64,000 nt of DNA from a candidate division CPR3 bacterium 4484_211 (GCA_002084955.1 MZGJ01000004.1:3155-67154); one strand, 5' to 3'; counted from the stretch's first letter, positions 409 through 40,602 are shown. The notes: a model not told the origin generated them from the sequence alone. Numbers and translations are program-made.

Positions 409-2310
409 TTGCGTATTTTTCTACTTTATCTGTATACTCTAGAGAGGATGAAGTTCTTGACTCCTCCGGTTACCACGCACTCTCTATCTGGAGTTTTGGG
501 AAATAATGATTGGTATACTTCCACGGTAGATGTAACCTTGAGGGCTTCGGATATAGATTCGGGACCTAAATCAACTACCTATTGGCTGAATGCTTCCGAT
601 CCAGTTACCAAGACTCATACCTCCGGGCAGAATCAGATTGTTAATCCTTCTTTTGAAAACGGGTGGTTTTTTTCTATTAATAATTGGGCGCACAACAGCG
701 GGGCTGGTTTTTGGCAAAGTTGGGTTTTTCATAAGTTTGGCTGGAGATCGGCGGCCATTGGGAATTTACTAAGCGGCGATAAGTTTTTTTACTGGCATAA
801 CCGAGGAAGTTTTGTGCCCACGGCGGAAGGCGAGCATTATTCTGTGTCTGCCTGGGTGAAAACCTTTGATATCGGCGGATTGGGGGCCTGGTTTGAGATT
901 TGGGGCAGGGCGGCCGTTGGGGCTGACGATCAACTTATTGCCGCCAGTGGCAAAGTAAATGGAACTGTGGACTGGACTTTGCTGGAACAGTCTTTTACCA
1001 TGCCGGCGGGTTTTGAGGGTGTCTATGTTAAGCTGGGCATGAAAGATGAGGGCCTGGCGGGCCTGGCCTATTGGGATGGAGTAAGTTTGTACGGCGGGTA
1101 TTCAGCTTTAACAAGTTTTACGGTTGTTGAAAATGGCAGCCACACGCTTCACTACTACAGTGAAGACAATGCCGGTAATATAGAGAGTGAAAAGACCGCT
1201 CCCTTAAAGATTGATACCGTTCCTCCTCATGACTGGAATAATTTTACCTATCTTCCCGGAAGCAATGATCATTCCTATATTGCCTCTATTGAAGTCATTG
1301 ATGAGACTTCAGGTATTGATGTTTCTACGGCTACCTACCGGTGGTATACAGACCACCAAGATTGGGGTTGGAGTTGTGAATCAGAAGAAGAATGGGACCC
1401 GGTGGCGAGTGTTACTCGGGTAAGTGACGGCCTGGCGGCTTCTGATGGAGAAACAACCGAGGTTGAACTAACCACGCCGGAGATTGACTTTGGCAACTCG
1501 GCTACGGTGATGCGGGTGCAGTTTAGAGTTGGTGACATGGCGGGTAGCTCCGCGGACAGCCCGGTTTTAACCATTGAAGGGGCGTGGCTTCAGCTTGATG
1601 GTGGTTTTCTTTATTCTCAGGGTGAGATTTCCATGACAGCTGCCGCTCCGGCAGGGAAACACAATTCCAACAGTTTGGTATTAAGCGGCGGGCAGATTAT
1701 TGGTTTTGACACCTCTACTTCTTGGTTGGATACTTCCTATGCGCACAATTTTAGTTCGGCTGCTGGTGTTTCCGATATCTTGGAAGCTTATGATGATCTA
1801 AGAAGCCGTGCTTCTTCCCTGCCCGATAATAAGTTGCCCACTTCCAGCGGGGTTTATGTTTTTGATGGGGATTATGTTATTGACCACAATTCCACACCGT
1901 CTGGCTTTGAGGGTAATGAATTGGCGGCGGTAATTTTTATTGATGGAGATTTACTGGTAAAAAACGGATATTCTATGGATCCGTCTTCGGCGGTCTTGTT
2001 TGTGGTGGAAGATGATGTCGGGATAGCCGGGGCGGTTGAGGAGATAGATGGAGTATTTTTGTGTAATGGAGAGTTTGATACCAACTATGATAATAAGCTG
2101 CAAAAGCAGCTAAATCTTAAAGGAGGAATAGTTGCTTTGGGCGGCGTGATTTTGGGTCGTGATCTGGGGAGAAAGGGCTCTCCTTCCAACGGAGAGAGCC
2201 CGGCGGAATTAGTTAATTTGCCGGAAAGTTATTTTTTCAATGAAGAATTTGTGCGTCTGGTGGAGTCAAAAACCTCTGCTCACTATGAGTGGAGAGAAGT
2301 AGGCCCGTGA
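409..2310 (+). CDS. Large secreted/surface protein with a CBM4/9-like carbohydrate-binding-type beta-sandwich signature; member of a tandem paralogous family
   Basis: 633-aa ORF. Motif NPSFENGWFF...W recurs in the 1506-aa protein as VPNSSFEKGSG...GW. Ser/Thr/Gly-rich, with no catalytic motifs recognised. Confidence 0.5.
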   Translation: MRIFLLYLYTLERMKFLTPPVTTHSLSGVLGNNDWYTSTVDVTLRASDIDSGPKSTTYWLNASDPVTKTHTSGQNQIVNPSFENGWFFSINNWAHNSGAGFWQSWVFHKFGWRSAAIGNLLSGDKFFYWHNRGSFVPTAEGEHYSVSAWVKTFDIGGLGAWFEIWGRAAVGADDQLIAASGKVNGTVDWTLLEQSFTMPAGFEGVYVKLGMKDEGLAGLAYWDGVSLYGGYSALTSFTVVENGSHTLHYYSEDNAGNIESEKTAPLKIDTVPPHDWNNFTYLPGSNDHSYIASIEVIDETSGIDVSTATYRWYTDHQDWGWSCESEEEWDPVASVTRVSDGLAASDGETTEVELTTPEIDFGNSATVMRVQFRVGDMAGSSADSPVLTIEGAWLQLDGGFLYSQGEISMTAAAPAGKHNSNSLVLSGGQIIGFDTSTSWLDTSYAHNFSSAAGVSDILEAYDDLRSRASSLPDNKLPTSSGVYVFDGDYVIDHNSTPSGFEGNELAAVIFIDGDLLVKNGYSMDPSSAVLFVVEDDVGIAGAVEEIDGVFLCNGEFDTNYDNKLQKQLNLKGGIVALGGVILGRDLGRKGSPSNGESPAELVNLPESYFFNEEFVRLVESKTSAHYEWREVGP

Positions 2311-2897: not shown

Positions 2898-3325
2898 GTG
2901 CCTTTATTCTATCATCCAAAATTTAAATAACCAAGATTTTTCTGTGTTTGAAATTTATCATTTGGACTTGGTTTAACATTTGGCGTTTTTTTAATTGGCC
3001 GTTTCGCGACCTCTCCCCTCCTTCAAGGGCATAGTCCTGCAAGAAAAGAAACTACCGCTTCCTGGGCGGTGGAGCTTCACAATTGAATTATGGCTGGGAC
3101 ATAAATGTCTAGAATCGTTGTAGTAGCGCAATTTATTGCGCGCTCTTCGCGCGGACTAAAGTCCGCTATTACAGGCGAAACAGGGAATTATGCAGGGAAT
3201 TATGTCCCGGTCACAATTGAATTTTGAAATTATGTTCTGGACACCGCACACAGTTTGATTGACTTTACCCCTGTATAGTTGTTATTCTTTTACCAAGGCG
3301 TTTTTTTACGCTCTTCTGACTAATT

Positions 3326-6300
3326 ATGGTTGACCTATCTAAAGTGAAAGATGGCTTGTTAAATAAAGGATTGCGGTCGACTGCATTGCTAAAGGGCTCG
3401 AAGAGAAAATTTCTCTATTTAGGTGCCATCCTTTTTGTTCTTGTAATTTTTTTAATTCCCATAAGAAGAAAGTTTTTGATTAATCGTTTAGCCGAATGGA
3501 GAGGGTTGGGGGCAGGGAATCTGGTACCCAACTCTTCGTTTGAAAAAGGATCTGGGGGAATGCCCGAAGGCTGGAGGCGGGTGTCGGGAAGTGTTCAAGG
3601 GGTGTTTGATGATAGGGGTGAAGTTTTGCAGGCGGCGGCTGCTAATTTTACCCGTAATGATGAAACCGCTGTAATGTACGGGACACATGAAATTGCCTTG
3701 GTTGGTGACGGGTCGTATGATGTTGACAATCTCTTTGCTCTTGACGTTGAAGTGTCCTTTACCGCTCCCTCCGGTCTTATTAAAACAGTGGCTGCTTTTT
3801 ATGATGGTGATGATAATTGGCGGGCGCGGGTTTATGTTGATGAAACTGGTACTTGGTCTTGGAGTTCCTCGTCATCGGAGGGCAGTCTTAACGGGGAGGG
3901 AGGAAATTTCTTTGCTCAATCATCGAATTTGCGGGGTATGCTCAGGAAGCATAGTCAAAATTCAAGGCAATTGGTAACCGATGATGGACAAACGTTTATT
4001 AATGTTGCTGATACTGCTTATTTCTTTTTTACGCCGTCGGAAACAGATTGGAGGGAGTATTTACGTCAGGATGCGGATCATGGTATTACCTCGATTAGGA
4101 GTGACGCCTTGGGCGGAGGTTTAAGTTGGGATATGTATTGGACTGATGATTCAAGGACTCAGTTTGATCTACCTAATTTCCAGAATATGGACGAGAGAGT
4201 TCAGTGGTTGCTTGATAATTATCCGGATATTCAGGTGCAGGTGAAATTATTGCCAGGTCCCAGCAGTTACGGGGCTGATGAGGCTGTTTGGCCGACGTTA
4301 CCCCAATCGGTTCGCGAGAATCTGTTGAGTTATATGATTAGTCGCTGGGCAGCTTATCCCAATCTTTTTTTTGAGGTGACCAATGACACTCGATGTTCTT
4401 CTGCCTATCCAAATACCCGCAGTATGGCAGATGAAGTTGGTAATTACTTTCTTGCTCATGACCCTTGGCGACACCTGATATCGTTTGGCCCCACACGCGA
4501 TGCAGAGTTCTGTTTTACTGAGGCTGATTGGGTGGGTTATATCGCTTTAGAGACATCCTACGATTTGTCAGCCGACTGGGTTGATAACTACATTTCGGAG
4601 CCGTTGCATGTTTTTAGTGAAGAAGATTATTATGAAACCTACAATACACCTCTTCATCCACGGTATTTCTATAGAAGGTTAGTTTGGTCTTGGTTGCTTT
4701 CTGGCGGTTCTGCTACCTATGGCGGCGATTGGGACACCCTAACTCCTTATTCACAGTCAGATCTATCTGGGATGGATTCTTTTCCTTATATTGTTTCTTA
4801 TTTCCGAGAACGGGGGATAGATCTGGCTTTGTTTACGCCTGATGATAGTTTGGCCGCGCAGATTAATGCGCCTTCTCCGGAGGGGAATAGCGGGCCAAGC
4901 AGAGCTCAGGTAGCTCGGCGTGAATATGATGAGTTTCTTATTTATGTCCCCAATTCGGAGGATGGTGAGGTGTCCGGTTTTTTGGAGGGAACAAGGTCTA
5001 GTGCGGAGAGGAGTCGGCAGGAAGCGGCACTTAATACGGATGTTACGCCCGAGATTCAGTTAGATCTACGGAGTGCCTTGGGGGAATTTACGGTAGAATG
5101 GTATCGTCCCTATGATGGCTTGGTGCAAACTGGCGGAGTGGTTAATGGCGGTGATTACCGTCAGCTTACTTCTCCGTGGCGGGGGTATGATGTAGTTGTT
5201 AGATTGGTTTTAAGTGCTTCTGCTACTCCTACGCCGATACCTACCCCCTCCCCCTCCCCTACTCCGGCTCCTTCTTGTGAATTTACCTGGCCGGCGCAGC
5301 CGGCGCATAGTGGAGATAGTGCCGTTAGGATTCATGGGAATAGCAGTAGTGCAGATTGCCGAATGGAGATGATAGAGGCAGTAGAAGTATCCCCGAGCAG
5401 CTGGTACGATTTTGGGGGATGGATTAGGACAATAGGCCTTTCGGGAGAAGCGCGCTATCGGTTGATTTTTTATTCGGATGAGGCGGGAGAGAATGAGATG
5501 GGTTTTGCAGACACGCAGGGGATAAGCGGGACAACAGAAAATCCGGATGAAAACGGGTATGTTGAGGCAAGCCGGAGTGTTATGCCTCCAGGGAGTGCGC
5601 GGTCGGTGCGGGTGCAGGCTGTCCTAAATGGCTCGGGGACGGCCTGGTTTGATGATGTCTGGTTAAATCAGGTAGGTGGTCCAACCCCATCACCGACTCC
5701 ATTTTTGTCATCGACGCCTAGCCCCACCCCAACTCCTCCCGAGTGTACCTATGAGGTCAGCAGCAATGCAGAGCTTGCCAGTGCCAACAGTGCTGTACAG
5801 GCGGGAGAAGTGGTTTGTTTGCATGAGGGTTCATATTCTACACCGATTGAACCCCTAAATTCAGGTTCGTCCGGGTACTATATTACCTATCGCTCCTTTA
5901 CTGGGGAAGAGCCAGTTGTTACCGCACGGTCGCATCTGGATGATAAAAGCTATTTGGTAATTAGCGGTATCAGTCTTGCTTCTGATGGTCATACTTGGTT
6001 AAGCACCAATGCCAATTCTCACCATGTAGAGATAATCAACTGCAGTTTTGATTCCTCGGAGGGGGGGAGTTGGAATGGGATTTATCTTTACTATTCGGAG
6101 TACATTACCCTGCGAGGGTGTAAGTTTGGCAGCTGGTGGTATGGTAATGCGATTACGGTCAGTGGGGGCTCGCATATTTTAATTGAAGGCAACGATTTTT
6201 CTCAGGCGGCGGCTGATCATGGATTGGTGATTCTCGGGGCTTCCCATTCGGTTATTCGCAACAACTATTTTCGCAATCCCTGGGATCGGGCTATTTCGGC

Positions 6301-7846
6301 AAGGTGGACAGGTGACGAAGTTGCCGAGAATGTTTTGATAGAAGGTAATTTGTTTATCGATAACGATTGGAACAGGCTTGATCCGCACCCGGGCGAAGGC
6401 TCGAGTCGCGGCTCTATCCAGACGATGAAATTTGATGTTTCCAGGGGGATATTTAGAAATAATCTTTTGGTCCTTTCTAATCAGGGCAAAGACTATGAAT
6501 ATCACTCTAATATCTCTATGGCCACATACGGTGATGCTCATTATCTGGAGCATTTAAGAATTTATCACAATACTATGCATAGGAATAAGGGTAATACTCT
6601 TTGGTTTTCCTTTTTACCGGATCGAGATGAATATGTTTATGGGGATGATAATCGGGTCAAGAACAATATCATCACCCAGTATAACCTCCGCCCGGAGTAC
6701 ACCGATTATTCCATAAATATTGCCAGCAGTAGTCTGCCCTGGCAGACTTTCCGTTTTGAAAATAACCTCCTTTGGGATACAGACAAACAGGAGACTATTT
6801 ATATAGATGATGCCGGCAGTGCTCAGTCGGTGACTACTGCCGAGGCTAACCACGCCGAGCAGTTTAGGGATAACCATTTTGCCGCCCCAATTTTTGTTGA
6901 TGATTCTATTTTGGATGAGGCCGATCTGCGGCCCGAGAGTTATAATTTAGATAATTTAAGGGATTTCTTTTGTGCCTTGTCTCTTCAAGATTCTAGTCCG
7001 GGAAGACGGGAAGCGGCTCCCATAAGTGTAGTAACTCAGTCGGTTAGCGGAGCAACAAGTATTCCCGTGGACGATGCCTTTTACTTTTCTAATGGCAACG
7101 GGGTAGTCGCTGGAGATGGTCTTGTTTTTGCCTCTGGTGATTTTGCTGTGGTAAGTGAAATTCCCGATCAGAATACACTTGTTGTGGACAGGCCGGTTTC
7201 GGTTAGTGAGGGAGAGGGTGTTTATCTGTCGGTGGCTGGTGTTGCCCCAGATGTAGGTGCCTATGGCTGCCGTGCTCTTTCTCCTACTTCTACTCCTACT
7301 TTCACTCCAGCGCCTACTGGTGGGGGGCCGGGGGCGACGGCTACTCCACATCCAACCTCGCCCCCGGCGGCAACTTCCACACCGGCGCCAAGTTCAACTC
7401 CTTTGCCGAGTCCTACGCCGGAATTAACAACTACGCCGGAGCCGACATCTCCACCGGGGCCGACATCTCCACCACTGCCAACTTCTACTCCGGCGCCCAC
7501 TCCCACGCCGTTTCCAGCCTGTGAAGATCAGACCTACCCGGAGTGCTTTGGTGAGTGCGTGGGGGTTTCTATTTTTCGCAGATGTCTTAATTTTAATCAT
7601 TTTATTAATTTAGCAATTTCCTGGGCGGTGTTGTTGGCGCCTCTTTTCTGTTTGGTGCGGCTGGCTATTGGGATCCTGGGCTATATGACGGCTACGGGAG
7701 ATACCAAGAAAATGGAAGAATCCAGGACGACGATGGTTTATGCCCTAGGGGGCTTAATTTTAATCGGTGTAGCCTGGGTATTCTTGAGACTGGCCAACAT
7801 TTTTACTCTCCCCTTCTCCGGCTGGCAGATGTGGTTTGGAGGATGA
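3326..7846 (+). CDS. Giant (1506 aa) cell-surface protein: N-terminal TM anchor, CBM-like modules, possible glycoside-hydrolase-like region, right-handed parallel beta-helix (pectate-lyase-like PbH1 repeats), Pro/Thr-rich linkers, C-terminal two-helix TM hairpin
   Basis: N-terminal TM FLYLGAILFVLVIFLIPI. CBM-like motifs NSSFEKGSGGMPEGWRR and a second SSWYDFGGWIRT...AWFDDVWLNQ. Beta-helix repeats NCSFDSSEGGSWNGIYLYYSEYITLRGCKFG...ITVSGGSHILIEGNDFS...LVILGASHSVIRNNYF. Linkers PTPIPTPSPSPTPAPS and TPHPTSPPAATSTPAPSSTPLPSPTPELTTTPEPTSPPGPTSPPLPTSTPAPTPTP. C-terminal hydrophobic hairpin AISWAVLLAPLFCLVRLAIGILGY...MVYALGGLILIGVAWVFLRLANIF. Confidence 0.7.
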   Translation: MVDLSKVKDGLLNKGLRSTALLKGSKRKFLYLGAILFVLVIFLIPIRRKFLINRLAEWRGLGAGNLVPNSSFEKGSGGMPEGWRRVSGSVQGVFDDRGEVLQAAAANFTRNDETAVMYGTHEIALVGDGSYDVDNLFALDVEVSFTAPSGLIKTVAAFYDGDDNWRARVYVDETGTWSWSSSSSEGSLNGEGGNFFAQSSNLRGMLRKHSQNSRQLVTDDGQTFINVADTAYFFFTPSETDWREYLRQDADHGITSIRSDALGGGLSWDMYWTDDSRTQFDLPNFQNMDERVQWLLDNYPDIQVQVKLLPGPSSYGADEAVWPTLPQSVRENLLSYMISRWAAYPNLFFEVTNDTRCSSAYPNTRSMADEVGNYFLAHDPWRHLISFGPTRDAEFCFTEADWVGYIALETSYDLSADWVDNYISEPLHVFSEEDYYETYNTPLHPRYFYRRLVWSWLLSGGSATYGGDWDTLTPYSQSDLSGMDSFPYIVSYFRERGIDLALFTPDDSLAAQINAPSPEGNSGPSRAQVARREYDEFLIYVPNSEDGEVSGFLEGTRSSAERSRQEAALNTDVTPEIQLDLRSALGEFTVEWYRPYDGLVQTGGVVNGGDYRQLTSPWRGYDVVVRLVLSASATPTPIPTPSPSPTPAPSCEFTWPAQPAHSGDSAVRIHGNSSSADCRMEMIEAVEVSPSSWYDFGGWIRTIGLSGEARYRLIFYSDEAGENEMGFADTQGISGTTENPDENGYVEASRSVMPPGSARSVRVQAVLNGSGTAWFDDVWLNQVGGPTPSPTPFLSSTPSPTPTPPECTYEVSSNAELASANSAVQAGEVVCLHEGSYSTPIEPLNSGSSGYYITYRSFTGEEPVVTARSHLDDKSYLVISGISLASDGHTWLSTNANSHHVEIINCSFDSSEGGSWNGIYLYYSEYITLRGCKFGSWWYGNAITVSGGSHILIEGNDFSQAAADHGLVILGASHSVIRNNYFRNPWDRAISARWTGDEVAENVLIEGNLFIDNDWNRLDPHPGEGSSRGSIQTMKFDVSRGIFRNNLLVLSNQGKDYEYHSNISMATYGDAHYLEHLRIYHNTMHRNKGNTLWFSFLPDRDEYVYGDDNRVKNNIITQYNLRPEYTDYSINIASSSLPWQTFRFENNLLWDTDKQETIYIDDAGSAQSVTTAEANHAEQFRDNHFAAPIFVDDSILDEADLRPESYNLDNLRDFFCALSLQDSSPGRREAAPISVVTQSVSGATSIPVDDAFYFSNGNGVVAGDGLVFASGDFAVVSEIPDQNTLVVDRPVSVSEGEGVYLSVAGVAPDVGAYGCRALSPTSTPTFTPAPTGGGPGATATPHPTSPPAATSTPAPSSTPLPSPTPELTTTPEPTSPPGPTSPPLPTSTPAPTPTPFPACEDQTYPECFGECVGVSIFRRCLNFNHFINLAISWAVLLAPLFCLVRLAIGILGYMTATGDTKKMEESRTTMVYALGGLILIGVAWVFLRLANIFTLPFSGWQMWFGG

Positions 7847-7862
7847 GCTAAGTTTTTTATGC

Positions 7863-7892
7863 TTGACATTTCCTGTTTGGAAAAGGTAGGAT
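7863..7892 (+). promoter_or_regulatory. Candidate sigma70-type promoter upstream of pilM (TTGACA-18 nt-TAGGAT)
   Basis: TTGACA at 7863-7868, 18-nt spacer, TAGGAT at 7887-7892, about 80 nt upstream of the pilM start. An inverted repeat TCCGATCC..GGATCGGA follows at ~7943-7965. Confidence 0.2.
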
Positions 7893-7972
7893 GATGTAGG
7901 ATGCCCGTTAAAGAATGGTTTTAGCGGGTGGTTTTTGATTGATCCGATCCGTGTTGGATCGGATGTTATTAA

Positions 7973-9031
7973 ATGATGCAATTTTTTGGTTTGGACTTTG
8001 GTACGCACACTCTTAAGGCGGTGGAGTTGAGTTACTCTAAGGGTGGTAAGCCTCAACTGGTTGCTTTTGGTTCTGTTCCGGCGCCGGAGAAAAGCATAGA
8101 ATCTGATTCCTCCATTGATCAAGCGGATTTAATTAAATCAATTAAAAGCCTTCTAAAAGAAAGCGGGGTTAAATCCCGCAAAGTGGTCACCGCTTTCCCT
8201 GAGTCTAAAATTTTTAGTCGGGTTATTGAATTTCCGCCTTTAAGCGGGCAGGAATTAAATAATGCCATTGAATGGGAGTCGGAGCGATTTGTCCCTTTAC
8301 CAAAAGATAAGGTAAAAATTAGTTGGATGATTTTGGAAGAAGGTCAAAAACCGCAGGGGGAAAATTCACCCGGGAAAAAAATGAGGATATTTCTGGTGGC
8401 AGCCCCCCTGGATTTAGTTGAACGCTACCTAAATATTATGGAAGGAGCGGGTTTAGAACCGATAGCTTTTGAGTCGGAAATAATTGGGGTGGTAAGGGCT
8501 TTGTCTTTGGGTATGCAGGAAGGGCCGACAACTTTAATTATTTCTCTGGGAGCAAAGACTACTGATCTGTGCATTGTTGACGGCGGCATAATTCAGTTTA
8601 CGCGGAGTATCGGGACAGGCGGCGTAGCTCTGGCCAGGGCTATTGAGCGAGAATTGGGATTTGAGCTGAGTCAGGCCGAAGAATATAAACGAGCCTATGG
8701 TCTTTTGGAAGATAAGTTGGAAGGGAAAATATTGAAAGTGGTTAAACCGGTTTTTGATATTATTGTTAATGAAATCGAAAGGGCGGTTATTTCTTACCAG
8801 ACTAAGATGCCCATGCGGCCGGTTAAAAGGGTTGTCCTTACGGGGGGAACATCTCAATTGCCTGGGGTGGTGGTGTATCTGGCAGAAAGTTTGGGCATTG
8901 AGGTGCAAATTGGCGATCCCTGGATTGGTATTTCTGTGCCGCCTCAATTTGAGACCGAAATTCATTCTCTGGAAAACCAAACCCGATATGCGGTGGCTGT
9001 GGGTTTGGCTCTCAAGAAGTTTGAGAGATAA
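7973..9031 (+). CDS. pilM: Type IV pilus assembly ATPase-like protein PilM (actin/FtsA fold)
   Basis: 352 aa. N-terminus FGLDFGTHTLKAVEL is typical of PilM (GLDIGSSSIK-type). It is followed by a PilN-like and a PilO-like gene. Confidence 0.75.
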   Translation: MMQFFGLDFGTHTLKAVELSYSKGGKPQLVAFGSVPAPEKSIESDSSIDQADLIKSIKSLLKESGVKSRKVVTAFPESKIFSRVIEFPPLSGQELNNAIEWESERFVPLPKDKVKISWMILEEGQKPQGENSPGKKMRIFLVAAPLDLVERYLNIMEGAGLEPIAFESEIIGVVRALSLGMQEGPTTLIISLGAKTTDLCIVDGGIIQFTRSIGTGGVALARAIERELGFELSQAEEYKRAYGLLEDKLEGKILKVVKPVFDIIVNEIERAVISYQTKMPMRPVKRVVLTGGTSQLPGVVVYLAESLGIEVQIGDPWIGISVPPQFETEIHSLENQTRYAVAVGLALKKFER

Positions 9032-9190
9032 TTGTGCTGATTAAGATAGAATGTCCTTTTTTAAATGACCAAAACTTTCCCGTGTTGCGTCCGCTTTCAG
9101 GGCGGGGAAGCTTTACAGTAAAATAAATGGCAAAGAGGGTTTTTGTTTTGAGTTGACTGTAGAAATTGGGTCGATAAGGCATTTTGTGCT

Positions 9191-9763
9191 TTGGTTTTCT
9201 TCTGGGATATGCTTGACAAGGGAATTAATCTTTTACCTCAGGATATTCAGGAAACGGAGCGTCAGCGCTTGGCGCTCCGTAAGACGAGCATTTTGGGGGC
9301 GGGTGTTTTGGCGGTGACCGCGGGACTGGTTCTTTTAGTGTTCTCTTATCGCAACCGGGTGGAAGAGAGTTGGTTTTCACTGCGGGAAGAGATTGCTGCC
9401 AAAGAGGCGGTAATTAATCAGGAAGAAAACCGTCGCCTGGAAGCTAAACTGGTTGTTGTTAGAAGTAAAATTGATAATCTAAAGAGCTACTTTGATAAGC
9501 AGACAGACTTTGCCTCTTTTTTGGAGGTTTTTTTTACCAAAATTCCGTCTGGTGTGGAAATGGTTGCCTTAAGTGAAACAGACCTGCCTGATGGTCAATG
9601 GGAATTTTCCGGAGTGGCTGATAGCTTGGATAGACTGGAAGTGTTTGTTGATAATTTGAAGTCTTGGGATAAAGTAGGTGAGGTAGAGGTCAAAAGTTTG
9701 TCATATAAGGTGGAGAAAAGCTCAATGCCCTTTGAATTGATTATCACAAGAAAGGATAGTTAA
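9191..9763 (+). CDS. pilN: Type IV pilus assembly protein PilN-like (bitopic, coiled coil)
   Basis: 190 aa, single TM (ILGAGVLAVTAGLVLLVF), then coiled coil. Sits immediately downstream of pilM. Confidence 0.55.
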   Translation: MVFFWDMLDKGINLLPQDIQETERQRLALRKTSILGAGVLAVTAGLVLLVFSYRNRVEESWFSLREEIAAKEAVINQEENRRLEAKLVVVRSKIDNLKSYFDKQTDFASFLEVFFTKIPSGVEMVALSETDLPDGQWEFSGVADSLDRLEVFVDNLKSWDKVGEVEVKSLSYKVEKSSMPFELIITRKDS

Positions 9764-9883
9764 GTTAATTGATTTCTGATGTCTGCTTGGGCTGTTGATG
9801 CCGACCTTAAAACGGAACATTCCCGTTTGAGTTTTAAGCGGGCAGACTAGCTTGTTTTGGGTTGGTTATAGAAGCGCAGGTAA

Positions 9884-10579
9884 TTGAAGATTTCTATGCG
9901 GACCTTTAGATTTAAGCAGTCTCCTAAACTTCTTTTGTTTTTTTGCGTCTTCACTATGGTAGTGGTTATTTTCTTTATTGTTTATCCTTGGGTTAAGGAA
10001 ATTGTCTCTATGCGGGCTGATATGGTGAAGGAGAGAGCTTTATTGGAACAAAAGCTTATTCCCAAGGAGAAGGCTCTCCAATCGTTAAATGAAGAAGATT
10101 TAGACAAGATGATTTTACAGTTGGAAGAAGCTTTGCCGTCTTTCCCTTATGAAGTTACGGCCCTGTCCGTACTTGAGTCAATTGCCGTCGCCTCTGGGGT
10201 GAACTTGGGTGGTCTAAATGCCGCGGTGGCGGGTACTGGTTCGGTTGCCGGGGTGGATGCGGTTGTTGTGCCGTTGTTAGCAGACGCGGACAGATCGCAT
10301 TTGGTTGCCTTTTTAAAAAATCTTGATCGGGCTAAAAGAGTTTTGGCTCTTGAGCAGATATCGTTGGAGACGGATGGAGCAGTACTTCATATGACGGCAC
10401 AGGCGCTTGCTCCTTATTGTGAAGTTCCAGGTGAGTTGGGTCGGGTGGAGGATCCCCTGCCTCAATTGACCGCCGCTGACGAGGAGGTTTTGAATAAGGT
10501 TTCTCAACTAAATCTTTACGGGGTTTCTTTATCCAGGGAAGGACAGCAGGTTCCCGCCGGGAAAGAAAATCCTTTCTAA
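9884..10579 (+). CDS. pilO: Type IV pilus assembly protein PilO-like
   Basis: 231 aa, N-terminal TM (LLLFFCVFTMVVVIFFIVYPWV), then coiled coil. Third gene of the pilMNO order. Confidence 0.45.
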   Translation: MKISMRTFRFKQSPKLLLFFCVFTMVVVIFFIVYPWVKEIVSMRADMVKERALLEQKLIPKEKALQSLNEEDLDKMILQLEEALPSFPYEVTALSVLESIAVASGVNLGGLNAAVAGTGSVAGVDAVVVPLLADADRSHLVAFLKNLDRAKRVLALEQISLETDGAVLHMTAQALAPYCEVPGELGRVEDPLPQLTAADEEVLNKVSQLNLYGVSLSREGQQVPAGKENPF

Positions 10580-31556: not shown

Positions 31557-31579
31557 GCCTCATGAAGTACCGGGTACTG
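31557..31579 (+). repeat. REP copy B (GCCTCATGAAGTACCGGGTACTG); extended identity from 31542; adjacent internal duplication GGGTACTGCTC x2
   Basis: Exact 23-mer; supplies the ATG of the 31562 ORF (MKYRVLLGY...). Confidence 0.8.
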
Positions 31580-32428
31580 CTCGGGTACTGCTCCTGTTGC
31601 ATATTGGACAGCTGTTTGTTATACTTCGCGTTAATGTCAATCCCACAAGTTTCCTCAAGGAATACCAAAAACGAAATTTTGGCTGCTTATCAACAGTTAC
31701 GGGATATGGTAAGCCAGCGGAAGGAGACTCCGGCGGTGTCATTTCGCGGGAAGATTATTGCCCAGGTGGAGAAAATAGAAGCGAGCTTGGCGGCTAAGCA
31801 GGCCGAGGTAGGTGAATTAGAAGAAAGAATTGCACAGTTAAAGCAGGAGTTGCAACTGGGCGAGAGGATGAAGTTGACTCGGGAGCAGTTGGAAAAGTTG
31901 CAGGAAAAGATTGCCCAAGAAGAGCAGCGGTGGCAAAGACAGCGCCGCCAGTTGGAAGAAGAGCTGAAGGATGTGAGGTTGTGGAATGAGAAGCAATGGG
32001 AAAAAGAACTGGGGCAGAAACGGTGGGAATTGGAAATGGAGGAAAAGAAGAGAATGAGGATTCTTGAGGAAAAGGAAAAACTCTTCGGGCAGAAGGCGGC
32101 AGATTATAAGCAGTTAAAAGAGCAGGTAAAGTCTTTTCCTGAGCGGTTAGAGAAAGCGGCTAAAGATGGTATTTCGGAAGGTTTGGCGTCTGCAAGAGAA
32201 GAATTTGAGGTGGAGAAAAAGAGCATGAGGCAGCAGTTTGAATCGGAAAAGCAACTTTTAAATCAACAGATTGAAAATTTAGAAAACCGCCTGCAGGAAG
32301 AGAAGGAGGCAAAGAAGAGACTGGAACAGCAGTTGGCTTTGGCTTCTCAGCAGATTAAGCAACTGGCAGTGGCGGCACTGGAAAATAAAACATCTAAAGT
32401 TCAAGAAACAACTCCCAAGACTGCATAA
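31562..32428 (+). CDS. Hypothetical coiled-coil protein (E/K/Q/L-rich)
   Basis: 288 aa; heptad-like EELKxxLEE repeats throughout, no enzymatic motifs. Bracketed by direct REP copies. Confidence 0.4.
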   Translation: MKYRVLLGYCSCCILDSCLLYFALMSIPQVSSRNTKNEILAAYQQLRDMVSQRKETPAVSFRGKIIAQVEKIEASLAAKQAEVGELEERIAQLKQELQLGERMKLTREQLEKLQEKIAQEEQRWQRQRRQLEEELKDVRLWNEKQWEKELGQKRWELEMEEKKRMRILEEKEKLFGQKAADYKQLKEQVKSFPERLEKAAKDGISEGLASAREEFEVEKKSMRQQFESEKQLLNQQIENLENRLQEEKEAKKRLEQQLALASQQIKQLAVAALENKTSKVQETTPKTA

Positions 32429-33782: not shown

Positions 33783-35306
33783 TTATCCAAACATCACTTT
33801 TCGGGCAGCCGGAATGATTTGTTGCCCGAAAATTGTCAGCTCTTCTTGGCTGGAGTGAAAGATGGCCGGTAATCCCCCCCAGCTGTAGACTTGGGCCGGC
33901 GCCAGCAGACGCGGATCCCCGGCCCGGGTTCTCTTGGTGAAGACCTGGCCGGGCCGGGCGGCCCAGCAGAGGATCTGGCCGGTTTTTTCGTTAGCCGGCA
34001 CTAACCGACCGGCCTCCCATTTCCACCAGCCGTTCATGTTGCCCACAACGGGTAATGGCAGCTCGGCCTCTGGCAGAGGGTGGATATCAAACTGCCATCC
34101 TCCAGCTTCGGCCACGCTTTGGCGATTGTACTCCTCTGGCCGAAGCCAGGAAAAGTCTTCTTCGCCTGAGGCGGCGAGAAGCCAGAGACCGAATGTGGAA
34201 GGCCGTCCTTTCATCAGGGCTCGACGGTCGTGTGAAAACGAAGTTCCCTGGTACCGCGCGTTGATTTCGTGCGGGACTACTCGCTCTCCTTCGAGGTCGA
34301 TGATAAAGTCAATCCCGAAGATCCCGATGTATCCGAATTCTTGGTGTAGGTGTTGGCCTACCCGCACCATCACATTTAGGTACTGAACCTGGATCCTCTC
34401 CGGCCATGGATTTGTCCAGTCATCACCGACGGCGCCCTGGGGTTTGCCGCCGGTGATGTGGCTAATCTGACCCGCGGAAGGTTTGTGAGACAAGGGGTCG
34501 ACGAGCACGACCCCACCGGGCAGGACCACTGCCTGCCCATTAGTTTCGTAGCCCTCGACAAACTCGACGACCCGGTACCACATGCCCGGGCCGGCCTCCC
34601 GGAGCATGTGGACTGCGTCGGACCAAGTGTGGTACACTCCGACGATCCGGGTCCCTGACCCTCCGGCAGAATCGTCGGTTTGTACCACGCACTTCTCTCT
34701 GAAGAGAGATCGAACTTCCTCCCATTCTGGGAGTTGGGGCGTGGTCCCCTCTATAAAATGTGGAGGGTCTACACCTGCTCCCTGAAGAATGGGGGCAAAG
34801 TTCTTTTTGGGCTCGATCAGTTTTGTTACCCTGAAGGGGACATAAACCTGAACGAGCCCCCTCTTTTTGGAGAGGCGGTCCGCTTCAGTCCGGAAGCCAT
34901 CCCAAGCTCCGCGTGTAAACACGGAGCTGTACAGGATGTAGGGGCCTACCAAAACTCCATTAGGGTTGGAGAGCATCCAATCCCACAATAAGGGCAGGTG
35001 GGTCCCCTCCGGGTCGAAGACGAGGTCAGGTGTGGGTTGGCCGGGCTTGTCCAAAGTAACGGATAACCGAGCCCGGCCGCGCCCGATGGTGGTCAGCTCC
35101 AAATTGGGCTCGGGAAGAAGCCCGAAGTTGACCAGGTTGTACAAGATTGGCCGCGTGTGGATCGCGGCTAGGGAGCGACTCCAAAGGGCTTGCTGTAACC
35201 GGGTTGCAAATTGGTCTAGCATCTCTGGCCTCCTTTTTGAAAGATTTAAAGAGCAAAATCGAAGTGAATTAAAAACGGGAAGAAAAGAAATAACAAGAGT
35301 AGGCAA
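33783..35306 (-). CDS. ATP-grasp fold ligase (~60% GC, compositionally foreign)
   Basis: VVQTDDSAGGSGTRIV (ATP-grasp K/GSxGxG-like loop) and C-terminal GIFGIDFIIDLEGERVVPHEINARYQG (Mg/ATP E-x-N). Hand-counted GC of 34381-34440 is 60%, against 32% (33001-33060) and 40% (35521-35580) in the neighbours. Confidence 0.6.
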   Translation of the reverse strand: MPTLVISFLPVFNSLRFCSLNLSKRRPEMLDQFATRLQQALWSRSLAAIHTRPILYNLVNFGLLPEPNLELTTIGRGRARLSVTLDKPGQPTPDLVFDPEGTHLPLLWDWMLSNPNGVLVGPYILYSSVFTRGAWDGFRTEADRLSKKRGLVQVYVPFRVTKLIEPKKNFAPILQGAGVDPPHFIEGTTPQLPEWEEVRSLFREKCVVQTDDSAGGSGTRIVGVYHTWSDAVHMLREAGPGMWYRVVEFVEGYETNGQAVVLPGGVVLVDPLSHKPSAGQISHITGGKPQGAVGDDWTNPWPERIQVQYLNVMVRVGQHLHQEFGYIGIFGIDFIIDLEGERVVPHEINARYQGTSFSHDRRALMKGRPSTFGLWLLAASGEEDFSWLRPEEYNRQSVAEAGGWQFDIHPLPEAELPLPVVGNMNGWWKWEAGRLVPANEKTGQILCWAARPGQVFTKRTRAGDPRLLAPAQVYSWGGLPAIFHSSQEELTIFGQQIIPAARKVMFG

Positions 35307-35362: not shown

Positions 35363-36253
35363 TTATGGACTTTTATAGACTTGCTTGACCACCCAGGAGA
35401 ATCCTCTTGGCCCGATTTGCGGTACAGAGATAATTCTGGGAAATTTTGACAATAAGTTTTTACCATTTTGATCTTGGACATTGTATCCCTTGTCAACTGC
35501 ATGAAGCATTTCTAAATCATTCTCACCATCACCGACGCCAATAGTTTTTATGCGCGTCTTGTGTGTTTTTACAAAGATTTGTGTAAATTTTTTAACAGCT
35601 TTTCCTTTATCGCAACCCTTTAATACATGATAGAATAATCCTCCTTTTAATACGGTATGGCCCCTAGCTTGCAATTCAGATATGACTTCATTTTTGATTT
35701 CCCCTTTTATATCCACATTCTTTTTGAATTGAAAGGCAACATCAAAATACTTTTGGGGTGAACATCCCTCTCGTATTTGTTCTACTGTCCAATGAGGAAA
35801 GTACGGTTGCAATGAGATTATTTCCTCGCTAGATTGGGGCATATCAGGGGAAATTATAAAATAGTTGGGCAATCCATATTTTTGTGAGATTTTATTTTCT
35901 ATATTGTCTAGGTCTCGTAATATTTTATTTCTTTGGACTCCTAAGCAAATGAGTAACCCTTCTGGAATCTCGATGTGTCGATGGGGTACCTGCTTAAATT
36001 TATTTTGGTATTTTTGGGGTATAACGATGCCGCCACCGTTTTCGCAGATAAAAGGCACGTTAAGTTTCATTCTTTGTAAAAGTGTGTAAATGGCACCGGC
36101 CGGTTTGCTAGAGACTGGGACTATTAGGTCGCTATGCCTTTTTATTGTCGTTACAGCCTTCTCACTTTTATGAAAGTTCATTTTTTGATCAACAAGCGTC
36201 CCATCGATATCTGTGAAAAAAAGTTTTTTGGTGGTATTATTTTGGAAATCCAT
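35363..36253 (-). CDS. HAD-IIB family sugar-phosphate phosphatase (Cof / mannosyl-3-phosphoglycerate phosphatase-like)
   Basis: Motif I FFTDIDGTLVD; motif IV GVGDGENDLEM. Start taken as the internal Met (MDFQ...), since the track ORF overlaps the upstream gene by 125 nt. Confidence 0.6.
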   Translation of the reverse strand: MDFQNNTTKKLFFTDIDGTLVDQKMNFHKSEKAVTTIKRHSDLIVPVSSKPAGAIYTLLQRMKLNVPFICENGGGIVIPQKYQNKFKQVPHRHIEIPEGLLICLGVQRNKILRDLDNIENKISQKYGLPNYFIISPDMPQSSEEIISLQPYFPHWTVEQIREGCSPQKYFDVAFQFKKNVDIKGEIKNEVISELQARGHTVLKGGLFYHVLKGCDKGKAVKKFTQIFVKTHKTRIKTIGVGDGENDLEMLHAVDKGYNVQDQNGKNLLSKFPRIISVPQIGPRGFSWVVKQVYKSP

Positions 36254-37352
36254 TTTTTTCAGGTAAGTTGAAATATGCGGAAAGACCAAGTCTGCGAATA
36301 CGTTGAATAACTGGTTCATAAAATGGGGCCGCTCTCTTAGCGGCGTTAGAAATGTATTCATCAGTAGCTGGGTGTCTGAGGCATTCCCATGGCTTGAAGT
36401 GAAACTTTTCTTTTCTTGGGTCTAATCTTTGATGCTGTGTAAATATTGGATAACGTCGCTTAATCAAGTCTTTTACCTTCTGGTTCCGTTTGGTGTCTTT
36501 GGTTTTGTATAGTGTTTGTTGAATTTTCCAAAAAATGTCACTCTTTTCAACTTTATAGAAGTCGTTAAGCATTGCAATCGCACAGTGGCGATCGGTTTTG
36601 ATATAAGCATTCTTATTTTCGTCAGTAATGCTAATAGGGCTTTCCTCGCTGGCAGTAGCCAGCCAATAACCGCGACCGTTTTGGTAGGCTAGTGAAAAGC
36701 CGCATCTAGCTAATTTAAGACTGAAAGTAGTTGCGTCACCCCATTGGGGCACGCCGGGATTTCTTCCGACGTAGTCCTCAATAGTTTTTAATGTTGCTAC
36801 TGCCATTCCGTTTACTGATGAGGACAAGGTAATGTCACAATATTGGGGAAATCTTGTGGCTTCTAGTTCTACTCGCGGCTTGAAGGGCTTTCCGTTGTTA
36901 AGGGATGGAAGCCCGAGTAATCCTAATTTATATTTTATTAAGTTTTCTATCATATATTTTGTAAAGCCATATTGTATTATGGCCACGTCCGCATCTCTGT
37001 GTATCAAGATATCTCCTGTTGCCAAGTCTTTCAGTTGGGTTCTAGCCTCTGGTAGGTTAAATTTATCTGTATAGTTTTCTACAAATTTGACATTCTGCCA
37101 TTTGTCAGAGACGCCTTCTAAGAAGGAGAGAGAGTTGGCAATCCTTTCTCCAATAACCTTGGCTTTCTTGGCAAATCCCCTATATTGGCTACAGAAGAAA
37201 ATACACTCAATAAGATCGGACGGAAAGTCTTCCTGGAGGAATTCCGCTAGCCGCTTCCACCACCGATGGTGGTCAAATGTGGTGGGTATTAGCCAGGAAA
37301 CTAGCGGTCTGGGTTTTTCTGTCTTGTAAGATTTATTTGCTTCAATTGTCAT
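36237..37352 (-). CDS. Putative GT-A fold glycosyltransferase
   Basis: PLVSWLIPTTFDHHRW (cf. the GT2 N-terminal xSVVIPTYN strand) and a DxD-like ILIHRDADVAII; 371 aa. Immediately upstream of the HAD phosphatase, with overlapping stop/start. Confidence 0.35.
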   Translation of the reverse strand: MTIEANKSYKTEKPRPLVSWLIPTTFDHHRWWKRLAEFLQEDFPSDLIECIFFCSQYRGFAKKAKVIGERIANSLSFLEGVSDKWQNVKFVENYTDKFNLPEARTQLKDLATGDILIHRDADVAIIQYGFTKYMIENLIKYKLGLLGLPSLNNGKPFKPRVELEATRFPQYCDITLSSSVNGMAVATLKTIEDYVGRNPGVPQWGDATTFSLKLARCGFSLAYQNGRGYWLATASEESPISITDENKNAYIKTDRHCAIAMLNDFYKVEKSDIFWKIQQTLYKTKDTKRNQKVKDLIKRRYPIFTQHQRLDPRKEKFHFKPWECLRHPATDEYISNAAKRAAPFYEPVIQRIRRLGLSAYFNLPEKNGFPK

Positions 37353-38272: not shown

Positions 38273-38683
38273 CTATAGGTCGAGATCAATTTGGGGAGCT
38301 TCGTCGAGGTTCGAGAATTCAGCTTCGTCAAACAACGCACCAATAGCTCCCAGCTCATTGTTTTCTTCTGAAGCGGCCACGGTGGGTTCGGTAAAAAATG
38401 ACTTGAGTTCCTCGGCGGCTATTGTAGGAACGGTCGTAGGAGTAGGGCTGGCGGTCGGTGTTGGCGCGGGTGTGGGAGTAGTCGTGGTGATACTTTCCAG
38501 ATGGTCATTTTGCTGTTGCCCATACAAATAGACTAGGGTGGTGGTGAGAATAGCCAGTAACAAGATGATAAATAACAATTTGATGCTGCTTGGATGCGAA
38601 CTGGGTTTAACGAAAGGATTATCAGAGTTTTTTGCTTGCGCATCAGTACTGGTTTGCGTGTTGATATTATTGAATTCGTTCAT
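38273..38683 (-). CDS. Hypothetical secreted/membrane-anchored protein with Thr/Pro-rich segment
   Basis: TM LLFIILLLAILTTTLVYLYG then TTTPTPAPTPTASPTPTTVPT; 136 aa. Confidence 0.35.
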   Translation of the reverse strand: MNEFNNINTQTSTDAQAKNSDNPFVKPSSHPSSIKLLFIILLLAILTTTLVYLYGQQQNDHLESITTTTPTPAPTPTASPTPTTVPTIAAEELKSFFTEPTVAASEENNELGAIGALFDEAEFSNLDEAPQIDLDL

Positions 38684-38765
38684 TGGATGGGTATTAGGCT
38701 CTATCTAGGCTTTAGGTTTTTAGGATTTTCATTGTTTATTCTAGTATCCAACCACCTGTTATCTG

Positions 38766-40010
38766 TCACCTAATGCTTAGACTCGCTTCTACTCCTCCCG
38801 GCAGTACCTTTTTCCACTCATTGCTTCCTCCAATTTGGTAGGTTAAATTGCCCTTTAGCAATACTTTACCTGTGCCTTTGGCAGTTATATCTAATCCGGA
38901 TCCGTTAATAATAACAATTATATTCGAGCCGGTGACTGAAATGGTGCCAATTCCTGTATATTTTACCTCGTTATTCCCTATCTCTTCTTTGTGCCCTTGG
39001 CCGTTGGTGTCAACTTGGGCATCGCCGTTTTGGTCAATAATGGTTAGCGATCCTCCGCCGGCCGGGTCAACTGTTCCTGTTACCGAGCCGTTGCCGAGGG
39101 CGGCCATTTTACCGCTGCCTTTTGTGTGGATTACTCCGGTTCCGGCAAAGACCTTTATTTGTTTGTGCCGGTATTTAGTTAACTTTCTTGCTATTGCGGT
39201 CAAATCTCGATGAGCTTCCCGTAGCAATTGGTTGACTTGTTTTATCTGTTGATGAACTTCGGAAAAAGATAAGTTGTTGCCAGAGTCAGCTAGGCCATTG
39301 CATTTTTCTTGGACGGCATTTAGCTCTTCTCTTGCCTGAGAAATTTTGGTTCTGAAATTGGCAATCTCTTTTAGTAACTCGTCAATATCTTGGTCTTCTG
39401 CCTGTAGGCTTTTAATTTTTTCTTCTAATCGGTTGGCGGTGTTTTCTAGTCTGGTGAGAATATTTTCCACCTTGGCCTGGAGTATTTGGCAGGACCATTT
39501 TCTGGCCCGGAGCCGATTTTTTAACCAGTAATCCTTTAAAGTACGGGCATTTTCTTTAGCTGTCCCCAGGTCGGGGACGGAAGTAAAAGAGTGTTTTTGT
39601 TTCTGCAAATAGTTGATGTCGGTCTGAATTTCGGCTATTAAAGCTTGCTTTTCTTCGCTAGAGAGGGCTGAAGAATTTTCTATCCTTTTTTGGGCAGTTT
39701 CCAGGTAGGAAATCATGGTATCTATGGCGCTAGGAAAGTAAGTCTGGATCTTTTTCAAGAATAGATTGGAATTGGCGGCATTTTGGGCTTGTAAATATCT
39801 TTGTCGGGCAGTTACGAAATCGTCCTTTATTTGTTGATAGCTGCTCAGAACTTGGAGGTACTGTTTTTTTTGAGCTTGGTACTGTCCTGTTAAGTGTTGG
39901 TTGAGTTCAAAGGGTGATAATGCCTGTGGCTCTTGTGGAGAAAGCCAAACTAGAAACGGAGTCAGTAGGAATACAGATGTAAGCGCAACTTTAAAAATCT
40001 TTTTTTTCAT
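38766..40010 (-). CDS. Hypothetical secreted protein: signal peptide, long coiled coil, Gly-rich beta C-terminal domain
   Basis: Start taken at MKKKIFKVALTSVFLLTPFLVWL (signal-like). C-terminus GTGVIHTKGSGK...GSVTGTVDPAGGGSLTIIDQNGD...ISVTGSNIIVIINGSGLDITAKGTGKVLLKGNL. Confidence 0.4.
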   Translation of the reverse strand: MKKKIFKVALTSVFLLTPFLVWLSPQEPQALSPFELNQHLTGQYQAQKKQYLQVLSSYQQIKDDFVTARQRYLQAQNAANSNLFLKKIQTYFPSAIDTMISYLETAQKRIENSSALSSEEKQALIAEIQTDINYLQKQKHSFTSVPDLGTAKENARTLKDYWLKNRLRARKWSCQILQAKVENILTRLENTANRLEEKIKSLQAEDQDIDELLKEIANFRTKISQAREELNAVQEKCNGLADSGNNLSFSEVHQQIKQVNQLLREAHRDLTAIARKLTKYRHKQIKVFAGTGVIHTKGSGKMAALGNGSVTGTVDPAGGGSLTIIDQNGDAQVDTNGQGHKEEIGNNEVKYTGIGTISVTGSNIIVIINGSGLDITAKGTGKVLLKGNLTYQIGGSNEWKKVLPGGVEASLSIR

Positions 40011-40062
40011 CGTTATGCAAAGTCTGTAAAAGCACCACTCTTCAGGTTGAGAGGTAAAACAC

Positions 40063-40602
40063 TCATCTTCTGTCTTGACCAAAATAGGTTGTCTTTCTTA
40101 CGCGGCGTTTTGCTCTTTTTAGTTGTTTTAGTAGTTGTTTTAGTTGTTTTGGATTTCTCGGCAAAGCCGGCTCTTGATTTTTTGAATTCAATTCTCTTTC
40201 CCTTTGCAATATTGCGGGTGAAGTTGCTGCCTTTTCAAATTCTCCCGGGGTTAGTTCTGCTGCGGCTAGCGCATCTTGGACAGATCTCGCTTCTTCCAAA
40301 AGATCACCCCTGCCCTGCTGTTTGGCTGGGCTGCTGTCTCCTGAGATTTCTTCGAAGCCTTCTTGGACTTCTTCCGGCAATTTTCTTCTCCCTGGTTTTT
40401 CCCTCCCCTTGGGGATTCCAGAAGGGGTACCTCTTTTCCTAGTTCCCCTTGTTTTAGCACCGCCATAGAAATCTGTCTGCCTTTTAGGTTCGGTTTTTCC
40501 GGGAGGAGGGTTCCTAAACCTGTTTGCTTGCTCATCGCGTCGATCGAACCACTCCTCTACTCCTGGATCTTCTGAAAGTGGACGAATTTTTCCTACAGTC
40601 AT
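40063..40602 (-). CDS. Hypothetical highly charged/disordered protein
   Basis: 179 aa, R/K/E/P-rich with no motif; overlaps the downstream gene start. Coding status uncertain. Confidence 0.25.
   Translation of the reverse strand: MTVGKIRPLSEDPGVEEWFDRRDEQANRFRNPPPGKTEPKRQTDFYGGAKTRGTRKRGTPSGIPKGREKPGRRKLPEEVQEGFEEISGDSSPAKQQGRGDLLEEARSVQDALAAAELTPGEFEKAATSPAILQRERELNSKNQEPALPRNPKQLKQLLKQLKRAKRRVRKTTYFGQDRR

Follow-up and report, generated by a model that had tools for sequence, protein, structure and literature searches.

In the cellulosomes of Clostridia and Ruminococcus, the anchoring scaffoldins bear cohesins and are fixed to the cell by surface layer homology (SLH) domains or by sortase. 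Another kind of surface component, the VirB2-like pilin, is widespread in bacteria of the Candidate Phyla Radiation (CPR) (PMC12102498). Pilins of the type IV secretion system (T4SS) are among the essential proteins of a cultivated Patescibacterium, as are dockerin- or glycan-binding envelope proteins (PMC10633639); the T4SS with its VirB2-like pilins is essential in the one genetically tractable CPR member, and its function is unexplained (PMC10633639; PMC12857230). The VirB2-like pilins described in Patescibacteria, such as those in the arrays of Ca. Southlakia epibionticum and TM7x, are small proteins encoded within T4SS clusters (PMC12102498; PMC10633639). This article deals with a giant gene of an uncultured and ultra-small bacterium, candidate division CPR3 bacterium 4484_211, in which a pilin module of this kind closes a 1506-aa protein with two enzyme modules. 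The gene lies in a 64-kb window, that is, the whole stretch of DNA that was analysed, and window coordinates are used throughout. From its sequence, and with a probability of about 0.6, the gene encodes a membrane-tethered, glycan-degrading enzyme of the cell surface, in which the pilin hairpin serves as anchor or display module and the pilMNO genes downstream are a separate unit.

The giant gene and its C-terminal pilin hairpin

The open reading frame (ORF) runs from 3326 to 7846 on the plus strand, without interruption over its 4.5 kb, and its product is 100% identical to B5M47_00745 of candidate division CPR3 bacterium 4484_211, annotated in NCBI as a hypothetical protein. The same 1506-aa product was recovered in two Guaymas samples, on scaffold_5212 (SAMN06251742) and on scaffold_285 (SAMN06251743), and the two scaffolds differ by a 12-nt indel within the spacer upstream of the gene. 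A first-pass annotation, made from the sequence alone, had described a protein of this length as a large, multi-module, envelope-anchored and glycan-active protein with an N-terminal transmembrane (TM) anchor, Pro/Thr linkers and a C-terminal hydrophobic hairpin, and all of these elements can be recognized. A hydropathy scan gives three hydrophobic segments, at residues 25-53, 1425-1458 and 1468-1497, the last two being the helices of the hairpin. The Pfam scan finds DUF5060 (residues 118-183), PF13204 (210-466), PF13229 (897-1049) and PF18895 (1426-1488), and these matches support the glycan-active reading. Linkers rich in Pro and Thr occupy residues 627-659 (5204-5302, plus strand) and 782-811 (5669-5758, plus strand), and a long Pro/Thr stalk covers residues 1316-1407 (7271-7546, plus strand). 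All parts of the protein belong to known families, and their combination is unique among the homologues found. The GC content at third codon positions (GC3) of every module falls within the range of the neighbouring genes, and neither GC content nor GC3, taken module by module, gives a sign of a recent foreign origin.

The resemblance of the C-terminus to VirB2/TrbC-type pilins, offered as speculation in the first-pass annotation, proved to be its best-supported part. Residues 1399-1506 (7520-7843, plus strand) comprise a Cys-rich beta-hairpin followed by a VirB2-like T4SS_pilin two-helix hairpin, with the Pfam core at 1426-1488 (7601-7789). Taken alone, the last 107 residues match PF18895 with 32.9 bits (E = 6.7e-8), above the gathering score of 26.6, and the full-length protein reaches 26.4 bits. 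An exhaustive HMMER search with these 107 residues against 1.84 billion representative proteins yielded 217 homologues at E <= 1e-3, including 25 at E <= 1e-10; among those sampled, PF18895 was matched in 10 of 10 and exceeded the gathering score in six. The family is marked by a Cys motif before the helices, a first helix of the form W..LLA...RL.IG and a loop GD(P/T)xKxExAR, and the loop of the giant protein, TGDTKKMEESR, aligns with the family consensus S.GDP.K.E.AR. On these sequence matches, membership of PF18895 is firm. Membership of the canonical VirB2 family is contextual, since neither structure nor sequence gives more than a weak link to canonical conjugative pilins. The AlphaFold2 (AF2) model of the C-terminus, built from 33 sequences, has a predicted local distance difference test score (pLDDT) of 84 and contains a small beta-hairpin and two helices (24-56 and 61-95); its top fold match in the PDB, with a non-significant E = 0.74, is a conjugation pilin of Aeropyrum pernix. 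PF04956 is not detected in the C-terminus at E <= 5, and the profile of the pilin family reached no solved VirB2/TraA pilin among PDB sequences; the matches it did give, to designed helical proteins and to HtrII, were rejected as spurious. A word-indexed search with the C-terminal 108 aa returned only a fragment of the giant protein itself, and a single-sequence scan of metagenome contigs for pilin domains returned nothing.

The closest small homologue (P0036) is B5M47_02355 of the same metagenome-assembled genome (MAG). It is 51% identical to the hairpin of the giant protein and has the P..W..WFG tail common to the subfamily of the latter. P0036 is the first of three PF18895 pilins arrayed in a T4SS locus on another contig of the MAG (L009, 9980-20445); after these pilins the locus encodes a polytopic VirB6-like protein of 1491 aa and a VirB4-like ATPase. 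This arrangement matches that described for CPR T4SS (PMC12102498; PMC10633639), so that a canonical pilin array beside VirB6-like and VirB4-like genes exists in the genome of the giant gene. A gene of the 23S-rRNA-IVP family sits between the first and second pilins of the array. No VirB4 or VirB6 is encoded in the 64-kb window, and the giant gene lies outside any T4SS locus; phmmer and a custom hidden Markov model (HMM) detected no further pilin domain in the window or in the pilM loci examined. The giant protein thus shares with the described CPR pilins the PF18895 domain, the two-helix hairpin and the loop motif, but differs from them in that its pilin domain makes up just the final 7% of an enzyme of 1506 aa with no T4SS gene nearby.

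The size of this enzyme is unusual for the family. Among the 150 best of the 217 homologues, 65 have a single pilin domain and 85 have two to six in tandem; their lengths have a median of 235 aa and a maximum of 658 aa, and the longest N-terminal extension is 373 aa. Of the 65 single-domain members, 18 are extended at the N-terminus by 100 aa or more, with PKD-like domains among the extensions. The giant protein places 1425 residues with two enzyme modules before its hairpin, about four times the longest extension among these 150. Some of the tandem 'poly-pilins' (P0037, P0040, P0062, P0063, P0124, P0146 and others) have Cys-rich or Pro/Thr-rich C-terminal regions.

The predicted extracellular modules

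The first enzyme module begins with an Ig-like domain, DUF5060, which this glycosidase family has at its N-terminus (residues 118-183; 3677-3874, plus strand); PF16586 is matched with E = 5.7e-10 and 39.7 bits (threshold 27.2). This domain is followed by a GH140-like (Apiosidase-like) catalytic domain with a C-terminal beta-sandwich (residues 210-626; 3953-5203, plus strand), which matches PF13204 with E = 1.5e-8 and 35.0 bits (gathering score 26.5) and so gives an identity to a segment that had been marked as possibly glycoside hydrolase-like. A weak Pfam match to Collagen_bind_2 is also present in this region. Against PDB sequences, the profile of the module finds 4n0r (1e-22), the 'Apiosidase' 8t9w (4e-6) and a DUF5060 protein. 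The residues D354, E433, D434, Y436 and E437, invariant in the alignment of the subfamily, are kept in the giant protein. With the GH140 apiosidase-like enzymes the module has in common matches above the Pfam thresholds and invariant acidic residues; its relation to the solved apiosidase 8t9w is distant only, and its activity is at most a predicted one. Homologues in other bacteria are 36-44% identical, with E-values down to 1e-124, and two weaker ones are 32-33% identical. None of those inspected has a terminal hydrophobic hairpin, and just two have a beta-helix domain; the nearest GH140-like relatives are, unlike the giant protein, without a pilin anchor.

Two CBM-like signatures had also been proposed. 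Neither residues 47-120 nor residues 655-800 match any family of Pfam at E <= 5, those of carbohydrate-binding modules (CBMs) included, and the best match of these regions to PDB sequences has E = 0.11. The first signature corresponds to DUF5060. The second is a real, conserved beta-rich module of putative fold (residues 660-781; 5303-5668, plus strand), without a Pfam match and not a CBM by profile. It is homologous to repeated modules of the cohesin scaffoldins of relatives: residues 626-785 match residues 4-161 and 368-521 of such a scaffoldin with 32% identity (E = 2e-23).

The second enzyme module, a right-handed beta-helix with a small C-terminal beta domain, covers residues 812-1315 (5759-7270, plus strand). 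As the first-pass annotation had suggested, it is a parallel beta-helix, matched by PF13229 with E = 9e-17 to 1.3e-18. Among solved structures, the profile of its family comes nearest to members of PL6 (alginate lyases and chondroitinase B; 8e-17 to 8e-8, partial matches) and to the GH120 xylosidase (1e-19, N-terminal cap only), with which the module shares the right-handed beta-helix (7dmk, 6qps, 8bwk, 1ofl, 3vst). These matches span part of the module, whereas its full-length relatives, 45-48% identical, are uncharacterised, stand-alone secreted proteins of Patescibacteria with 560-880 aa. Two of the latter end in dockerin-like repeats, and none has the C-terminal hairpin.

At the other end of the protein, the hydrophobic segment of residues 25-53 (3398-3484, plus strand; Kyte-Doolittle peak 2.55), flanked by KGSKRK and RRK, is probably an N-in signal anchor. 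It is followed by the conserved extracellular motif NLVPNSSFEKGSGGMPEGW (residues 66-90; 3521-3595, plus strand), which is 42-50% identical to paired small TM ORFs of the closest relative treated below and can also be seen by eye in the paired small ORFs of a second lineage (L014). By BLASTP homology to these small TM proteins of relatives, the N-terminus of the giant protein is a fused copy of a small TM ORF. The paired ORFs are found at L002 6339-6671 and 6613-6999 and at L014 6254-6556 and 6634-6888, in both lineages directly upstream of a cohesin/dockerin scaffoldin, and they end in a conserved extracellular tail, NLVPNPSFE.G.G..P.GW.T.S, whose window counterpart is at 3398-3595. Each such scaffoldin has two copies of the uncharacterised beta-module and the giant protein has one; the tail may donate a strand to this module (strand complementation).

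The spacer upstream of the giant gene (2898-3325) is about 330 nt longer than that of the relative. Within it, a GC-rich core is enclosed by a 29-nt inverted repeat (3076-3104 and 3200-3228, 83% complementary), and a 12-nt tandem duplication of CAGGGAATTATG (3181-3204) is present where the other Guaymas sample has one copy. This repeat-bearing region could be a remnant resembling a miniature inverted-repeat transposable element (MITE) or a regulatory region. A promoter-like site, TTGACT-18-TATTCT with a TG (3259-3288, plus strand), is a weak match to the consensus (9/12).

Most of the units as separate genes or modules in a relative

The closest relative with usable context is a contig of a Patescibacteria MAG, JAHJGY010000022 (JAHJGY010000022.1), represented by loci L012 and L002. 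Its gene order is that of the window on both sides of the giant gene: upstream, a 633/668-aa gene is 64% identical and a minus-strand 171/178-aa gene 41% identical; downstream come a 69% identical PilM and then pilN, pilO, RNase III and a 694-aa ORF of RecG size. Between these flanks, the slot of the 4.5-kb giant gene is occupied by about 14 kb with about nine genes. They encode a 336-aa protein (P0188) with a signal peptide, an all-beta N-domain, a Pro/Thr linker, a Cys motif and a pilin hairpin; a 618-aa protein with a beta-helix and a dockerin; dockerin proteins of 558 and 707 aa; a GH5/Apiosidase-like protein with a dockerin; a protein with Apiosidase, CBM6 and dockerin domains; two small TM ORFs; and a 939-aa scaffoldin with two cohesins and a dockerin. 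The Pfam matches in the slot reach 26.7-36.8 bits for Dockerin_1 and E = 6e-19 for Cohesin. The cluster as a whole, with its pilin-anchored protein, five dockerin proteins and two cohesin domains, extends over L012 2845-13848 and L002 6339-9821.

Four of the five units of the giant protein are separate genes or modules in the relative, and BLASTP matches them in order. Residues 26-83 correspond to the small TM ORFs (42-50% identity), residues 626-785 to the repeated N-module of the scaffoldin (32%, 2e-23), residues 807-1325 to the 618-aa protein with beta-helix and dockerin (45.6%, 5e-152), and residues 1398-1506 to the anchor of P0188 (55%, 5e-38). From these sequence relations, the window protein is a covalent version of units that are separately encoded in relatives. 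In a second lineage (L014 and L015), a pilin-anchored protein of the P0038 type stands directly after a 1036-aa protein with cohesin and dockerin, and the pair lies in an unrelated setting, with genes for a P-type ATPase and a sortase and with ribosomal genes, not near pilM. From the contexts in both lineages, the recurrent partner of the pilin-anchored protein is the cohesin/dockerin machinery and not pilMNO.

The cluster of the relative resembles the cellulosome in combining a cell-anchored protein and a cohesin/dockerin scaffoldin with five proteins that bear a dockerin and of which several are enzymes. The likeness may go further, as cohesins are the best fold matches of the putative N-domain fold of the anchor protein P0188: a Foldseek search with its model gave just two matches at E <= 1e-3, both cohesins of Clostridium cellulolyticum, with many more cohesins in the top 50. 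The differences are that the anchor of the relative is a VirB2-like membrane hairpin and not an SLH domain or sortase signal, and that in the window, which has no cohesin or dockerin at all, the units are covalently fused. No description of cohesin-dockerin systems in Patescibacteria was found in the literature searched.

Proposed anchoring, possible pilus display and the type IV pilus genes

If the giant protein is a tethered surface enzyme, an N-in signal anchor would start its export through Sec and some 1370 residues would become extracellular: DUF5060 with the GH140-like (beta/alpha)8 glycosidase, the beta-module, the PL6/GH120-like beta-helix and the Pro/Thr stalk, whose roughly 90 residues would be long enough for crossing the wall. 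The chain would end in a Cys-rich knot and then the PF18895 two-helix hairpin, which would return into the membrane and, as in the topology of VirB2, turn its polar loop to the cytoplasm. The hairpin would serve as an anchor or display module and the giant protein as the single-chain counterpart of the cohesin-dockerin assembly of relatives, with a host or environmental polysaccharide as the likely substrate.

Several observations weigh against parts of this proposal. The GH140-like module has no significant BLASTP match in the relative, not even in its GH140 gene, so that the fusion is a mosaic and not a simple merger of neighbouring genes. Pfam finds neither cohesin nor dockerin in the giant protein, nor any cohesin in P0188-like proteins; the AF2 model of P0188 is poor (pLDDT 47.5), and comparison of its N-domain with the cohesins of the relative itself was negative by both hhalign and BLASTP. 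Given this poor model, the negative profile-profile comparison and the missing Pfam cohesin, the predicted cohesin-like nature of that domain is only suggestive. No strong terminator was found between the stop codon of the giant gene and the promoter-like site before pilM, and read-through into pilM is therefore possible. Finally, the sequence fits a hairpin that merely anchors as well as one that is polymerised into a pilus.

This last point leads to the main alternative, which we consider rather unlikely: the T4SS encoded on the other contig would extract the hairpin and build it into a VirB2-like pilus as a minor subunit, so that the enzymes would decorate a conjugation-type pilus in contact with the host cell. 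In favour of this, the pilin termini face outward in solved conjugative pili, the F-pilus among them. The giant protein carries a true paralogue (51%) of the first pilin of the VirB4/VirB6 locus in its own genome, including the shared P..W..WFG tail, and family members with long N-terminal extensions, PKD-like domains among them, already exist among the 150 best matches (18 of 65 with a single domain). The top-ranked PDB fold match is likewise an archaeal conjugation pilin, but it is not significant. Also against display, the gene stands outside the T4SS locus, its 1425-residue cargo is about four times longer than any N-terminal extension in those 150 matches, and its N-terminal TM segment seems to tether the chain and would make extraction harder. 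The literature searched contains no demonstration of a CPR T4SS pilus and speaks of such a structure only as 'potential' (PMC12857230).

A further alternative concerns the genes downstream. The first-pass annotation had coupled the giant gene to pilMNO, as an adhesin or enzyme co-expressed with this type IV pilus machinery, for example in episymbiotic attachment. The identity of the three genes and their position stand: they are on the same strand as the giant gene and follow it after a 126-nt gap. The first, pilM (7973-9031, plus strand), is strongly matched by PF11104 (E = 9e-46) and TIGR01175 (E = 4e-55, 187 bits against a cut-off of 133). The second, pilN (9209-9763, plus strand), encodes 184 aa from the ATG at 9209, as it is called in other assemblies too, with an N-terminal GINLLPQ (INLLP) motif, a TM segment and a weak match to PF05137. 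The third (9884-10579, plus strand) is a pilO homologue, with a weak match to T2SSM_b and a BLASTP match (5e-12) to a gene of locus L005 that passes PF04350. The genes are thus those of the PilMNO alignment subcomplex, but in this genome and its closest relative they are detached from pilB, pilC, pilT and pilins; the reported absence of pilB, pilC and pilT from the 64-kb window is borne out.

The gap contains a promoter-like element, TTGACA-N18-TAGGAT (7863-7892, plus strand), that had been regarded as only weak. It matches the consensus in 10 of 12 positions, and in the relative both hexamers recur with equal spacing and at an equal distance upstream of pilM, whereas the spacer between them and the upstream gene differ. 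Chance would give 0.00 occurrences of the motif in the window, which has two; the second exact site, TTGACA-N17-TAGGAT (41228-41256, minus strand), lies immediately downstream of a pair of tRNA genes and upstream of a DUF4870 gene, and it supports the motif as a promoter form of this genome. By sequence conservation, the element in the gap is probably the pilM promoter. Two hairpins follow at 7902-7962 (plus strand), the first of them (7902-7930) having a U-run and being followed by GGTTTTTG. The fold of the intergenic region has z = -4.3, the hairpins are not conserved in the relative, and Rfam has no match between 2200 and 11300. The first hairpin may be either a terminator of the giant gene or a structure of the pilM 5'-untranslated region.

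Co-function with the pilus machinery is favoured by the shared strand, the short gap without a clear terminator ahead of the promoter-like site, the glycan-active surface genes beside pilMNO in the closest relative, and the other large surface proteins that precede pilM in L022. The conserved promoter-like element between giant gene and pilM argues against it, as do the anchor/scaffoldin pairs of L014 and L015, which lie away from pilM, and loci L005 and L020, where pilMNO closes an ordinary type IV pilus cluster that has genes for pilins besides pilB, pilT and pilC, and in L005 pilD too. Furthermore, Pfam finds no prepilin (N_methyl) signal in the giant protein, and its anchor belongs to the T4SS pilin family and not to that of type IV pili. 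We therefore hold functional or operonic coupling to be improbable. Since the promoter-like element is conserved and the neighbours of pilMNO vary in other relatives, the adjacency is most likely local synteny, with pilMNO predicted to have its own promoter, rather than a functional operon.

That the ORF arose as an assembly chimera, or is the non-functional remnant of a fusion, with a C-terminus due to chance or resembling a signal peptide, might be thought from the single occurrence of its architecture among the matches and from the enlarged, repeat-bearing region upstream, but it is very improbable and largely refuted, because two samples with contigs distinguishable by an indel gave the identical product, which rules out a chimera, the frame is unbroken over 4.5 kb, the family-invariant glycosidase residues are kept, the GC3 of the modules is like that of neighbouring genes and the C-terminus exceeds the threshold of the curated family PF18895.

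Other features of the window

An OmpL47-type/Big_13 domain and a weak signal of CBM_4_9 mark the 633-aa protein encoded at 409-2310 (plus strand), the one that is 64% identical to its syntenic counterpart and a possible further member of the surface system of the giant protein. Elsewhere the window is of an ordinary housekeeping character, with genes for aminoacyl-tRNA synthetases, RecG, RNase III, PBP1, UvrB, RuvABC and glycolysis. A run of ORFs without a Pfam match at E <= 1e-4 is found at 31562-32428, 33783-35306, 36237-37352 and 38273-40602, and an IS200-like Y1 transposase gene (41655-42422, plus strand) adjoins a cluster of four tRNA genes. A 3.4-kb contig with a 100% identical pilM fragment (L001/L018; QNBI01000360.1, Ga0164318_10066157) is placed in a 'Spirochaetes bacterium' MAG, probably by a binning error.

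Significance

CPR bacteria, or Patescibacteria, make up a large share of bacterial diversity. In the window protein, a VirB2-like module is physically tied to glycan-degrading enzymes by fusion; in relatives, a cohesin/dockerin cluster surrounds a pilin-anchored protein. Neither the use of a VirB2-like pilin module as C-terminal anchor of catalytic domains nor its association with cohesin-dockerin genes in Patescibacteria is described in the literature searched. The finding suggests that enzymes can be tethered or displayed by pilin modules of this still poorly understood kind, and it opens hypotheses on anchoring versus pilus display, on the binding of dockerins by the N-domain of the anchor protein and on the substrates of the two enzyme modules.

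A wider proposal, which we regard as unlikely, is that VirB2-like modules serve for general surface display within this branch of the CPR, the T4SS-type pilus or the pilin pool of the membrane carrying enzymes either directly, as in the window protein, or through contacts of cohesin and dockerin, as in the relatives. If true, these bacteria would have a cellulosome-like glycan-degrading apparatus on a conjugation-type pilus, with which they would breach or feed on the surface polysaccharides of their hosts, and the essential but unexplained T4SS pilin arrays of CPR bacteria would gain a concrete function. The finding points to cohesin-dockerin systems in Patescibacteria and bears on what the T4SS pilins of these bacteria do.

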